A stretch of DNA of 20,563 bases from a virus (lineage: Duplodnaviria > Heunggongvirae > Uroviricota > Caudoviricetes), in the IMG/VR virus record IMGVR_UViG_2974665086_000001, positions 118,700 through 139,262 of that record; one strand, written 5' to 3'. The first letter of the stretch is position 1. Each line of letters starts with the position of its first letter. The notes under the pieces are model-generated. The model was not told the DNA's origin. It made no database searches and was given only the letters and a program-made list of their open reading frames with translations. Shown here in pieces: positions 17,355 through 20,563 of this stretch. The position numbers and the translations under genes were made by a program.

Positions 17355-17935
17355 CTTAATATCAAGACTGGGCAAAATGGCCGGGTGGATGAGAGTTATC
17401 GTCCATTCGGCCATAGCTATATATACAGATAGCTTAAGTTATAGAGAGAAACATAGAGAACTTAATACATTGAATGCAGCAAAAGCTTATGGCCGATGTT
17501 GTTATTTTTTTGACGATTAGAGCATCATAACTTAATAGGCAGCACAGAGCTTAGGACAACATAAGAACATAGCTCTAAAGTTATATAGTGTACCCCGTAC
17601 GTTGAAGCAAATAGAGTGCTGCATATAAGTTAATGCGCCATATAGGTCAGAGTGAATTTGAATCGGATAAGATTTCATTTCTAACACAAGTGTACTAGTA
17701 ATAGCGAAAAAGCTTATTTAAACTTAATGGCAAAAACTATGCAATTTTGATCAAAAAACAACAAAAATCGATCAAAATTCATCAAAAACAGCTTAATATC
17801 GGTCAAAAACGATGAAAACTTAATGCAGCTTAAATAGCTATGACTTAATGGCTATCCGAGCAGAAAAGTTTTGTTTTCATATAGCTATGGCAGGCACTTG
17901 TTGTTTTTATCGGGTTATTTATAGCTAGACTTAAT
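17353..17935. repeat. AT-rich non-coding region with dispersed ACTTAAT heptamers and phased A-tracts
   Basis: ACTTAAT at 17354, 17460, 17530, 17722, 17818, 17843 and 17929; A-tracts start at 17732, 17743, 17753, 17763, 17774, 17784, 17805 and 17815. Confidence 0.75.
17377..17414 (+). terminator. 16-bp RNA stem with three G-U pairs
   Basis: ATGGCCGGGTGGATGA-gagtta-TCGTCCATTCGGCCAT; all non-Watson-Crick pairs are G-U on the + strand. Confidence 0.5.
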
Positions 17936-17998
17936 GGCGACCCCGGCGAATTAAGTTATATGCCGGCCTCGCATCAATTTCAAATAATGTTTGTGCCG

Positions 17999-18201
17999 GC
18001 AGCTTAGCCTAACCTAACTAAGGATAGCCTATGCTAAGTAAGGTTAGGCTAACATAAGTAAGGTAAGCCATAGCTATATAAGGCAAGCCTTACCTATGTA
18101 AACGAGACCTAACATGACGTGAGATTCAAGTAAGCATAGCCATAGCTATATTGAAACAAGATTCATGTTAGGCAACACTAACTAAGCATGACCTTAGTTG
18201 A
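17999..18201. promoter_or_regulatory. Tandem array of IdeR/DtxR-type iron boxes, 20-bp period
   Basis: 19-mers vs TWAGGTWAGSCTWACCTWA: 17999 (16/19), 18019 (16/19), 18039 (18/19), 18059 (16/19), 18079 (17/19), 18099 (12/19); also 18131 (14/19), 18163 (14/19), 18183 (12/19). Confidence 0.8.
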
Positions 18202-18586
18202 ATCCAGATTCAAATTGATTGTATTAGCGATTGTACCAACTAGCAGCATTGAACTCGTAAGTCAACAGTCAATTTTGCTGCACTACGCGAGAAACATTAT
18301 TTGACAATTCTTGAAACGTTTGCTTTGCCGTCTCAGATCGATTCTAAGCGACTAATACCTTGTTTGCACACAATCGTACTAGGTATGCGCTGAAAGTCGC
18401 TTAGCGTGCATCGTCGCAGGTCAGAGTGTTAAGAAAACGAAAGAAACACTGGTGTGTGATCTATGTCATATTGACAATTGTTGAATCGATTCTGTATCCC
18501 GCGTCATGTGCACACCGCCCGGAGAACAAACGAGAACCATGCTACAAAGAATAATACAGAAACTGTGATGCAGATCACATAGACAA

Positions 18587-18928
18587 ATGTTGTTTCAAGT
18601 CTCGTTTGGGGGTAATGTTCTCGTTGTAAGGCAAACGGAAACGAGAACGGGGCAGACGATGAGTGAGCAAGCGATCCGCGATTACTGTGTTAAGCATTCT
18701 GACTTTTGGAAAGGCACTGTTGTGTCTACGTTCGTGTCCGACAACTCGCACTATGCCGTAGTTCAGTTTCGTGACGTTGTAACGGCGGCGCAGTGGCTCG
18801 AAGCACAACGTGACCCGGATGATGCACTCATGCGAGCACTCGGATTCCGCCAGCTCACAGGCGATCTGTACGGGCCGGTAATCAGTGTTTACGAACCGGC
18901 CAAAGTATGCGTTAAGTTCGCAGACTAG
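18587..18928 (+). CDS. Hypothetical protein
   Basis: 113 aa; true start may be ATG 18659 (MSEQAIRD). Confidence 0.65.
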   Translation: MLFQVSFGGNVLVVRQTETRTGQTMSEQAIRDYCVKHSDFWKGTVVSTFVSDNSHYAVVQFRDVVTAAQWLEAQRDPDDALMRALGFRQLTGDLYGPVISVYEPAKVCVKFAD

Positions 18929-18957
18929 TTCTTCCATTCTTTCAGGAAAGGTTCACA

Positions 18958-19335
18958 ATGATCACTCTCGCCAAAGAAACCGACTACATTACGATTACCG
19001 GAGTGCAAGCAATATCCTGCGCAATGGATATGCGTAAGGGCACCATCGAACAAACACGTTCGGGTCGTTGCTGCGATACCGGACCGTTCTCGAATACCAG
19101 GGAATCCGACCGGGAAGAATTGCTTTACTCGTTGCTGATCTGGCGCGATAGCCCGGAAAGAATCAGCATGACTTTTATTCCAGACCGTTTGTGGTCGGAT
19201 GCGCCCGATTGGAATAATCCGGTATCGGTAATGATCGATTCTGGCGATGCTTGCGAGCCACACGAATATCGGTTCGATTACGTTCCGCACGGTTTCCAGT
19301 GGCCCAACGAGAACATCGATAATCGCTACCTATAA
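18958..19335 (+). CDS. Hypothetical protein
   Basis: 125 aa, GGAAAGG RBS. Confidence 0.75.
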   Translation: MITLAKETDYITITGVQAISCAMDMRKGTIEQTRSGRCCDTGPFSNTRESDREELLYSLLIWRDSPERISMTFIPDRLWSDAPDWNNPVSVMIDSGDACEPHEYRFDYVPHGFQWPNENIDNRYL

Positions 19336-19421
19336 CCAGCACGCGGGCACATATGAGAGTGTGTGCCCTATGGTGGATATAGTTCGGCTACCAACACACA
19401 ACGCAAACAAAGGATAATACA

Positions 19422-20279
19422 ATGAGCGAGAACACTGTAACCCTCGAGAACGCTGCACCGATCAACCGTGACGATATTGCGTTCTCAAAGAACGATATGA
19501 CCACCGCCCGGTTCTGGGGTATCCGTGAGGGCATGATTAAGCCCGGAACCAAGGGCAAGACACACTCCGACGTTCTCGTTGCGTGGCATATGGCCGGTCG
19601 CCCGATTGTGGAAGCTCCCAAAGCGTGGAAGGTTCCCGCTACGGACAAGCACGCGTTCTCTGCCTACTGCGAGGCTAACTCGCTCGAGGCTACGGAATCG
19701 AACTACAACGCTTGGGTTGTAGAAGATAAGCCGTTGCCCGTTGGGTACTGGGCACCTGAGACCAAAGCACGCATTACGTTCATCGATTCCGACGGTACAG
19801 AATCGACCGTAGACGTATCAGAGGATAAGTTGCGTGAGACTCGACTCGAACTGTCAGGCTCGTTGAACGGTCGCCCGGAATCGCGTCACTACATCATGGC
19901 TGCACAGTTGAACACCGACCAGCGACCTGTGAGCATGACTACTGCCAATGGTGCCCAGCACACAATCCGCGAGGCTATGGAAGATGACAAGCCTGCCGAC
20001 GTAATGGCCGGTTTTGTAGTGGAATGGCAGAGTAAGCGAGACAGCAACGTACTGCTACACGCACAGATCGCAGAGCTGCACGCTGCTATCTTCACTGCAC
20101 TCTCAGAGCGTGATGATGCACGTGCACAGCTCGAGGCTATGACAGTCGAGCGTGATGCTTTGATCGCAGCACAGAGCAAGCCAGCACCTGCTAAGCGTGC
20201 AAGCACACGTAAGGCCCCGGCACAGACAAAGCGAGCACAGGCAGCACAGGCTCAAAGCGTTATCGACCTCGACGCATGA
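19422..20279 (+). CDS. 285-aa protein with N-terminal Lsr2-DBD-like motif, coiled coil and basic tail
   Basis: TARFWGIREGMIKPGTKGKTHSDVLVAWHMA resembles Lsr2 [30 protein letters not shown]; heptad region LHAQIAEL..VERDALIAA; tail PAKRASTRKAPA. Confidence 0.8.
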   Translation: MSENTVTLENAAPINRDDIAFSKNDMTTARFWGIREGMIKPGTKGKTHSDVLVAWHMAGRPIVEAPKAWKVPATDKHAFSAYCEANSLEATESNYNAWVVEDKPLPVGYWAPETKARITFIDSDGTESTVDVSEDKLRETRLELSGSLNGRPESRHYIMAAQLNTDQRPVSMTTANGAQHTIREAMEDDKPADVMAGFVVEWQSKRDSNVLLHAQIAELHAAIFTALSERDDARAQLEAMTVERDALIAAQSKPAPAKRASTRKAPAQTKRAQAAQAQSVIDLDA

Positions 20280-20343
20280 GCGAGCACGGAGCAATCGCAG
20301 TATTGCTTGGACTTGTCCACATCGAAAAAGTGATCGCGCTACT

Positions 20344-20366
20344 GATAGCGATAATCATTATCGCTA
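20344..20366. promoter_or_regulatory. Fur-family-like operator palindrome
   Basis: TAGCGATAAT-C-ATTATCGCTA (10-1-10); 20344-20362 matches the classical Fur box GATAATGATAATCATTATC at 17/19. Confidence 0.45.
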
Positions 20367-20387
20367 GTGTGATCTGACACACAACTA

Positions 20388-20419
20388 GCCCGGACTTGAA
20401 TTTAGTTTCAAGTCCGGGC
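20388..20419. repeat. 13-bp inverted repeat containing TTGAA-N6-TTCAA
   Basis: GCCCGGACTTGAA-tttagt-TTCAAGTCCGGGC. Confidence 0.8.
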
Positions 20420-20429
20420 AATGTCATAT

Positions 20430-20537
20430 GTAGGTAAGCCTAAGTTAGGTAAGGCAATGCTAAGTTGAACTCGGATTCAAGTAAGGCCGGCCTTACCTAA
20501 GTTGAATCTCGTTTCAAGTAAGGGCAGGCTAACCTAA
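20430..20537. promoter_or_regulatory. Second IdeR/DtxR-type box array, 37-bp period, alternating with TTGAA-N6-TTCAA
   Basis: Boxes at 20430 (15/19), 20445 (16/19), 20482 (16/19) and 20519 (17/19); TTGAA-N6-TTCAA at 20465 and 20502. Confidence 0.8.
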
Positions 20538-20563
20538 GTGACGGAGGTCACCTTCCCCTACAT

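Follow-up and report, generated by a model that had tools for sequence, protein, structure and literature searches.

The last 2,860 bp of the genome of Rhodococcus erythropolis phage Trina contain two arrays of predicted binding sites (iron boxes) for the host iron sensor IdeR, and arrays or clusters of such boxes recur in phages of three host genera. We regard this recurrence, recognised at the sequence level, as the main new result. The stretch of DNA analysed here, referred to as the window, comprises 20,563 nucleotides (positions 118,700 to 139,262 of the IMG/VR record IMGVR_UViG_2974665086_000001) and was taken as the 3' end of the Trina genome (139,262 bp). Its terminal part is the right copy of an exact direct terminal repeat (DTR), which was shown to be a self-contained terminal module composed of a bent, repeat-rich, cis-acting left part, a rightward operon of four genes with a hairpin, and a second repeat cluster. 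The third open reading frame (ORF) of the operon, ORF 3, encodes a 285-aa protein with a domain resembling the DNA-binding domain (DBD) of Lsr2. Actinobacteria rely on IdeR/DtxR as their master iron regulator and on Lsr2 to silence AT-rich foreign DNA. For the reading as a whole, namely IdeR arrays together with an Lsr2-type protein in one terminal module, we estimate a probability of about 0.5.

Iron-box arrays in Trina and in other phages

A preliminary description of the window had placed three genes between two iron-box arrays. Both arrays were recovered as real features: a de novo repeat finder, run with no model, returned repeat families with 20-bp and 37-bp spacing that were common to both clusters. 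The IdeR consensus is TTAGGTTAGGCTAACCTAA, with the degenerate form TWAGGTWAGSCTWACCTWA (PMC9505556, PMC10317159). When the 136.4-kb unique genome was scanned with the degenerate form, eight sites scored at least 16/19, and all of them were inside the arrays (17999, 18019, 18039, 18059, 18079, 20445, 20482, and 20519), while shuffled genomes gave 0.43 such sites. Array 1 begins with five to six boxes in exact 20-bp phase (17999–18117) that score 16, 16, 18, 16, and 17 of 19, the top site (18/19) being located at 18039 and the 17/19 site at 18079. The phased boxes are followed by three weaker ones, which are interleaved with the palindrome TTGAA-N6-TTCAA and its variants in 37-bp units. The boxes of array 2 score 15, 16, 16, and 17 of 19, the last of them at 20519; two of the four form 37-bp units with the same palindrome, and the cluster ends 26 bp from the terminus with the box TAAGGGCAGGCTAACCTAA. 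As a strict palindrome, TTGAA-N6-TTCAA occurs seven times in the genome, four times in the DTR, and one copy is the loop region of the hairpin. A phage-encoded regulator of the DtxR family was also considered as the ligand of the boxes and was dropped because no PF01325 match was present in the genome.

The arrays are retained to a varying extent in relatives of Trina, the sequences of which were available as assembled contigs from wastewater and factory metagenomes. Both arrays were found in the 92% relative, where the terminal box is identical to that of Trina (contig L012). A more distant relative (contig L015), with a 285-aa protein 57% identical to that of Trina, retains the last two boxes, and again the terminal one is identical. 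At the cut-off end of the contig of another distant relative (L016) there is an apparent start of a box, yet the scan scored no site there. A collinear array was observed in the Rhodococcus phage NiceHouse at 283–565, with three boxes of 17/19 in 20-bp phase (283–341) and, after them, weaker boxes interleaved with TTGAA-N6-TTCAA. In phage Dorin, one box (18/19) is located at position 285, at the same distance from the left end.

When the non-coding DNA on the left side of the repeat was used as the query of a sensitive DNA search, the only hits beyond NiceHouse were the arrays of the Corynebacterium vitaeruminis phages C3PO, Kimchi1738, and Cruella, which have genomes of 67 kb and belong to another virus family. 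In C3PO (NC_042085), five boxes of 17–18/19 in 20-bp phase are present at 61271–61369 (L022, L026). This first array adjoins a nearly pure-AT tandem-repeat tract of ~300 bp, and a strong promoter, TTGACA-N16-TATAGT, lies ~120 bp from the array, on the side away from the AT tract, in front of five small genes. A second array (63690–64040) is built of TTAGG-N4-CCTAA units at 15-bp spacing, and the two arrays bracket the five-gene block gp56–gp52; the unit corresponds to the published one-dimer IdeR half-site (PMC10317159). Both arrays are located at 61–64 kb of 67 kb, and the small terminase gene opens the record, where no terminal repeat was apparent; thus, the C3PO arrays are internal rather than terminal. 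No protein shared with Trina was found in the array region of C3PO.

The Gordonia phage SteveFrench (NC_048207) has four boxes of 17–18/19 within its last 1.1 kb (74586–75608; L024, L028), one of them inside its 191-bp DTR (1–191), with other repeats (TCTTTGTGATAGTGAA) among the boxes. This region is shared at an identity of at least 80% by related Gordonia phages, which account for 69 records. SteveFrench came up in an IMG/VR scan for two phased boxes, which gave three hits, two of which look like chance matches in coding DNA. A blastn-distant search of the phage collection with the right-end array returned no match, and neither did a megablast search of the same collection with the region, although the collection may leave out records of the same genome. 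A literature search found no paper describing iron-box arrays in these phages or in their repeats. The array-bearing phages have in common a host with a regulator of the IdeR/DtxR type, and this is the strongest argument for the host sensor as the predicted ligand.

The terminal repeat, its ends, and its non-coding DNA

The preliminary description had suggested that the block might be a direct terminal repeat with both ends marked by short-repeat clusters. An end-to-end comparison of the record bore out the repeat itself, which is 2,860 bp long with 0 mismatches (100% identity) and has end sequences conserved in relatives with determined ends. The start of the unit had to be corrected from 17999 to 17704. 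The left array lies 296 bp inside the repeat, so that a direct mark by a repeat cluster is confined to the right end. Terminal repeats as such are known for this group of Rhodococcus phages (bioRxiv 10.1101/2022.11.23.517428). In the same source, Trina is described as a probably lytic phage of cluster CE, isolated on R. erythropolis RIA 643 and sister to NiceHouse, and a terminal repeat of 5,291 bp is stated jointly for “NiceHouse and Trina” (bioRxiv 10.1101/2022.11.23.517428). The records themselves differ from this joint figure, with a DTR of 2,860 bp in Trina and 5,291 bp in NiceHouse. Judged by its portal protein, the phage groups with large lytic actinophages, namely those of Rhodococcus, with 50–57% identity to NiceHouse, Dorin, Francesca, Weasels2, Peregrin, and Grayson, and those of Streptomyces clusters BE and BK.

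The left termini of Trina (GCGAAAAAG...), NiceHouse (GCGAATAAGG...), and Weasels2 (GCAAATAGC) are alike. At the left boundary in Trina, TA is followed by the first letters of the repeat, GCGAAAAAGCTT, and the NiceHouse record begins with GCGAATAAGGCTT. About 15–25 bp past the right boundaries of all three phages, there is a common A-rich stretch with the motif ...TCAATTTT(G/C)A. The metagenome contig L015 breaks off exactly at the homologous ...CCTACAT. In addition, one contig of run X4 stops at 20562 and continues into a sequence that we take to be a Nextera adapter, which is a weak hint only. In close relatives, longer contigs lead out of the right unique arm, across a single copy of the repeat, and on into the left unique arm, bridging both boundaries, as is expected when an assembler collapses a terminal repeat.

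The motif (A/G)CTTAAT(G/A) occurs in five copies in the DTR (four ACTTAATG and one GCTTAATA), compared with 0.5 expected, and it recurs several times within the initial 250 bp of NiceHouse. Three copies of ACTTAATA that immediately precede the DTR (17354, 17460, and 17530) extend the ACTTAATG series over the left boundary, so that the cis-acting region seems to straddle the cut site. The order of ACTTAATG repeats, array, conserved element, and genes is common to Trina and NiceHouse. The conserved element is 78% identical to NiceHouse 982–1126 and 76% identical to the metagenome contig L014, and it is possibly a promoter or a leader. An Rfam search of the repeat gave no match for it, and its only two hits, one to the hairpin and one to the palindromic array, were miRNA-like and regarded as chance. 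Folding of 18325–18450 as RNA (consensus −7.3 kcal/mol, one compensatory pair) was not convincing as RNA structure. In Trina, we also noticed CGCAGGTCAGA (18416–18426; variants CAGGTCAGG and CTGGTCAA) in the interval that separates the iron boxes from the gene next downstream. A motif of this type stands in the same setting in NiceHouse (L018, ~1100), Dorin (L019), and the unrelated corynephage C3PO (L026, ~852) and may be a shared promoter or processing signal.

Table 1. Features of the right terminal repeat of Trina (coordinates of the window; a dot marks features with no strand).
Feature	Coordinates	Strand	Description
Right DTR copy	17704..20563	+	Identical to left copy, genome 1-2860
Terminal non-coding stretch	17704..17995	.	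36-39% GC; A-tracts ~10-11 bp apart; five (A/G)CTTAAT(G/A)
Array 1	17999..18216	.	IdeR-type 19-bp boxes and TTGAA-N6-TTCAA units
Conserved non-coding element	18300..18444	+	Includes TTGACAA...CTGCTTTGCC and CGCAGGTCAGAGTGTTAAGAAAACG
ORF 1	18587..18928	+	113 aa; no known family
ORF 2	18958..19335	+	125 aa; no known family
ORF 3	19422..20279	+	285 aa; Lsr2-DBD-like N-terminus
ORF 4	20276..20377	+	33 aa, hydrophobic; start overlaps ORF 3 stop
Hairpin	20388..20419	+	13-bp stem; terminator-like, without T-run
Array 2	20430..20537	.	Four IdeR-type boxes at 20430, 20445, 20482, 20519
Terminal 26 bp	20538..20563	.	Palindrome GTGAC-N4-GTCAC; ends ...CCTACAT at right physical end

The Lsr2-type protein and the operon

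Exhaustive searches retrieved nine full-length homologues of the ORF 3 protein; a search of IMG/VR with the 285-aa sequence found no relatives. The Lsr2-DBD-like N-terminus noted in the preliminary description found support through homologues and family profiles, while the protein itself fell short of a Pfam hit. Against the Lsr2 DNA-binding family PF23359 (cut-off 26.9 bits), the N-terminal part of homologue P0005 scored above the threshold (35.2 bits), and P0004 (26.1) and P0006 (23.9) were just below it. The cut-off was also passed by Dorin gp7 (35.5 bits), which aligns with the Trina protein along its length; gp7 is the last large gene of the Dorin repeat, is followed by a tiny membrane ORF, and is annotated as “Lsr2-like DNA bridging protein.” Two family profiles, A1 and A3, one of them built with no annotated phage protein, matched the solved Lsr2 DBDs 6qkp, 2kng, and 6qkq at E 0.004–0.007. 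Lsr2 DBDs were the sole matches of A1 in the PDB; A3 gave a marginally better score to an immunoglobulin chain (E 0.002), a hit that was taken as spurious.

AlphaFold2 models of the ORF 3 protein (pLDDT 79 and 86.7) have tandem N-terminal helix-loop-helix units at residues ~20–60 and ~75–105, followed by a beta-rich middle domain, a 47-residue coiled-coil-like helix (205–251), and a basic disordered tail. In fold searches with the full-length model only generic coiled coils were retrieved, at residues 203–258 (Z ~6), and Foldseek gave nothing. The resemblance of the N-terminus to Lsr2 is supported as remote homology only, and the protein belongs to a phage family that carries the Lsr2 DNA-binding domain in a different architecture and is not an Lsr2 orthologue.

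The three genes of the preliminary description were all recovered between the arrays, and a fourth, ORF 4, was added. Each of ORFs 1–3 matches a PHROG family over its full length, and these families consist of the phage itself or near copies. No Pfam family was found for ORF 1 or ORF 2, and their atlas look-alikes scored at most 0.90; an RRM-like lead for ORF 1 was weak. In wastewater relatives (runs X1 and X2), exactly 18651–18923 is swapped for 183 other, unrelated letters. This clean cassette swap suggests that ORF 1 probably starts at ATG 18660 and encodes 89 aa, and on the relative contig L013 the gene was called as 89 aa. ORF 2 is present in the 92% relative (contigs L012 and L013) and absent from the 57% relatives. 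At the position equivalent to ORF 4, Dorin has gp9, a tiny “membrane protein” gene. Inside ORF 4, a perfect 10-1-10 palindrome, TAGCGATAAT-C-ATTATCGCTA, was observed at 20345–20365, and its core matches the classical Fur box at 17/19 positions by our own comparison. In the 92% relative (L012) both arms are changed and pairing is kept (TAACGATAAT-C-ATTATCGTTA), with a Fur match of 18/19; the palindrome is absent in the 57% relatives. The hairpin downstream of the operon has a folding energy of −26 kcal/mol (z = −8.1), and none of 200 shuffled sequences folded as well. A terminator scan detected no T-run terminator.

The GC shift that the preliminary description had noticed in sampled lines held when it was calculated in full. 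The gene block 18587–20377 has 52.8% GC, compared with 44.6 ± 1.6% (maximum 49.7) in all other genome windows of equal size (z = 5.2), and GC at third codon positions (GC3) agreed, being 0.53–0.64 in the DTR genes and 0.447 ± 0.064 in the genome. Homologues of the 285-aa gene exceed their neighbours in GC by 4–10 points in all relatives examined; therefore, a part of the shift is a property of this gene family. Only in Trina and its closest relative does the shift extend to ORFs 1 and 2. Elsewhere in the genome, Trina also encodes the large subunit of class I ribonucleotide reductase (25020–26696, L008), the alpha subunit of DNA polymerase III (68795–71665, L010), and a Ro60/TROVE protein with a vWA domain (84599–86203, L011).

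Proposed function, alternatives, and comparison with known systems

The preliminary description had proposed that IdeR arrays act together with a phage Lsr2 mimic in counter-silencing. The parts that such a system would require, namely multi-box IdeR-type arrays, adjacent AT-rich DNA, and a phage protein with an Lsr2-type domain, are all present, and the proposal is plausible. The iron-loaded host sensor IdeR, a member of the DtxR family, would coat the 9–12 boxes of each repeat copy, and our judgement leans slightly towards such binding. For the arrays, an architectural or regulatory role seems most likely, comparable to that at the bfrB promoter of mycobacteria, where several IdeR boxes lie upstream and displace the silencer Lsr2: the arrays may keep the AT-rich ends of the 45% GC genome open and delimit the terminal operon, with titration of IdeR during genome replication as a side effect or an alternative. 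The ORF 3 protein, which combines the Lsr2-type domain with a long C-terminal helix that would serve oligomerisation, might target AT-rich DNA and there act as a competitor of host Lsr2 or take its place, or else organise the phage DNA. Host Lsr2 reportedly matters for the replication of mycobacteriophages. IdeR binding, iron dependence, and the timing of expression are alike inferred. Among the possible roles of the arrays, we ranked the architectural or regulatory one first, since it fits the AT-rich flanks, the multi-box layout, and the promoter geometry in C3PO; an IdeR decoy came next, followed by phage-specific end recognition, and the three are not exclusive. IdeR-activated genes are typically multi-box, and the bfrB gene of Mycobacterium tuberculosis, with four boxes, is activated by relief of Lsr2 repression (PMC10317159). 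An ideR homologue is present in the host strain RIA 643 (PMC10986025). As a broader and more tentative proposal, which we hold with the odds somewhat against it, lytic phages whose hosts span three or more Mycobacteriales genera (Rhodococcus, Corynebacterium, and Gordonia) may have independently placed phased, multi-copy IdeR/DtxR-box arrays in their terminal or early control regions; the arrays would recruit or soak up the iron-loaded sensor and so couple anti-Lsr2 opening or the host iron regulon to iron, in Trina jointly with the Lsr2-type protein.

Several observations weigh against the combination of IdeR arrays with an Lsr2-type protein. In the ORF 3 protein itself, no Pfam hit was obtained, the N-terminal dimerisation/oligomerisation domain of Lsr2 (PF11774) gave no match, and PF23359 had no match anywhere in the genome even at E 10. 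The structural match of the N-terminal model to Lsr2 was weak (Z 2.9 over 39 residues with 31% identity; Foldseek E 5.2), with Lsr2 ranked 6th in both fold searches and nothing above Z 3.5, as is expected for a unit of just 40 residues. At the position of the minor-groove RGR motif of Lsr2, Trina and the homologues P0001, P0002, and P0003 have KGK, and the other members have RGR. Scanning of the plus strand between array 1 and the genes revealed no consensus sigma-70-type promoter; thus, a promoter geometry like that of bfrB stays hypothetical. Array 2 is located behind the terminator hairpin, between convergent transcription units at the end of the repeat, a position more in keeping with a role in structure or at the terminus than with an operator. 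The second palindrome, TTGAA-N6-TTCAA, invariably goes with the boxes, and the last box, beside the cut site, shows 100% conservation, so that a phage-encoded end-recognition protein also fits. The scan found no boxes in Weasels2, which has both the homologous protein and a DTR. Finally, the majority consensus over the 12 Trina boxes, TAAGGTTAGCCTAACCTAA, is biased because the boxes were picked by score; the differences between positions are free of this bias. In support of IdeR boxes, information content at A3, A8, T12, and T17 was 2.0, 1.6, 1.1, and 2.0 bits, with positions 3, 8, and 17 among the highest and 12 weaker. The thymine at position 3 of each CCTAA repeat, which corresponds to box positions 3, 8, 12, and 17, is critical for IdeR (PMC10317159).

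This pattern bears directly on the possibility that the arrays are sites for a phage small terminase or end-binding protein, which would mark the cuts at concatemer junctions or protect the ends, with the likeness to iron boxes being incidental or mimicry. Three of the four critical IdeR thymine positions are among the best-conserved box positions, and unrelated phages of three host genera with no detected shared protein would each need an IdeR-like specificity. Moreover, the C3PO arrays are internal, with no terminal repeat at the start of the record, and the repeats of NiceHouse and Dorin lack a right-end array. The positional evidence favours end recognition: array 2 is 26 bp from the right terminus, its last box and GTGAC-N4-GTCAC are kept in relatives with 57% protein identity, the spacing between the left terminus and array 1 is constant (~290 bp) in Trina, NiceHouse, and Dorin, the boxes of SteveFrench are likewise at the genome end, and a second palindrome is interleaved with the boxes. 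Taken together, we consider this explanation rather unlikely. The interleaved palindrome would be left unexplained if the arrays served mainly as a decoy, in which hundreds of replicated boxes soak up iron-loaded IdeR, derepress iron uptake, shut down storage, and feed iron-dependent phage enzymes such as ribonucleotide reductase, which Trina encodes. The number of boxes (9–12 per repeat copy, with two copies per genome) and the lack of a tie to an identifiable promoter agree with a decoy, and phage WC1 raised iron import genes and lowered bacterioferritin in RIA 643, as if IdeR were switched off (PMC10986025). However, WC1 is another phage, for which a blastn-distant search with the array gave no match, and a decoy needs no fixed position, yet the placement relative to the ends and the conserved element was kept in Trina and NiceHouse. 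A predominantly decoy role is therefore quite unlikely in our estimate.

Another reading, in which a phage initiator binds the repeat clusters as iterons of an origin of replication or of a partition-like site and the phased A-tracts serve in unwinding or bending, seems highly improbable to us. Phased A-tracts and several classes of repeats do occur together within a 0.9-kb non-coding region, and next to the C3PO array there is a nearly pure-AT tract of tandem repeats such as origins typically have; however, an adjacent initiator gene is lacking, each repeat has two separate arrays, which makes four per genome, and the motif is that of the host IdeR box in unrelated phages.

Should IdeR-box arrays prove functional in the genomes of lytic phages, they would show that phages exploit a metal sensor of the host, be it in anti-silencing, as a boundary, or as a decoy. 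This would offer a testable handle on the expression of the first genes of phages with 45% GC in hosts with 62–70% GC (~62% in the host of Trina). It would also make phage success dependent on iron, which is relevant to the use of phages against Rhodococcus, Gordonia, Corynebacterium, and mycobacteria. The recurrence in phages of three host genera makes the arrays more interesting than a curiosity of a single phage, and material is accessible, as Trina, NiceHouse, C3PO, and SteveFrench are isolated phages with cultivable and for the most part harmless hosts.

Among known systems, the closest in overall layout are the DTRs of large lytic actinophages (Rhodococcus clusters CE and CB and Streptomyces clusters BE and BK), which have exact repeat ends of a few kb on genomes of ~130–140 kb and carry small genes with no assigned function together with an Lsr2-type gene inside the repeat. 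Lsr2 genes inside DTRs have been described for the related Streptomyces BE phages and for Arthrobacter phages (PMC8612146). The DTR of Trina is the shortest of the set (2,860 bp, compared with 5,291 bp in NiceHouse, 4,720 bp in Dorin, and 3,268 bp in Weasels2), and it differs in that only the Lsr2-type gene and the tiny membrane ORF are common to the relatives. The ORF 3 protein shares a helix-loop-helix unit and a basic, G-centred loop with Lsr2 and with phage Lsr2-like proteins such as Dorin gp7, its homologue by both position and sequence. Unlike in Lsr2, the DBD-like domain is N-terminal and duplicated, which amounts to a reversed architecture, the beta-rich middle domain and the long C-terminal helix replace the oligomerisation domain, and KGK stands in place of RGR.

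Short-repeat or palindrome clusters near the boundaries of terminal repeats are also known from T7, with SRL and SRR near the genome ends, and from T5, with a repeat-rich injection-stop region at the inner end of its terminal repeat. This likeness is a lead; there is no sequence relation, the left cluster of Trina is 296 bp inside the repeat, and the motif is internal in C3PO. With the operators of IdeR/DtxR, especially the four-box bfrB operator of M. tuberculosis, the arrays share boxes set in a row in DNA that is expected to attract Lsr2, and in the published bfrB model IdeR displaces Lsr2 (PMC10317159). In Trina, by contrast, the boxes are predicted, no promoter was found by the scan, and the setting is a lytic phage genome with up to six boxes that abut in exact 20-bp phase, composite 37-bp units that include another palindrome, and one array at the terminus behind a terminator. 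The one textbook case of a phage-borne site for a host iron sensor of the DtxR family is the tox operator of corynephage beta. It is a single operator at one promoter of a temperate cargo gene, whereas the sites of Trina form arrays in a terminal control region of a lytic phage.

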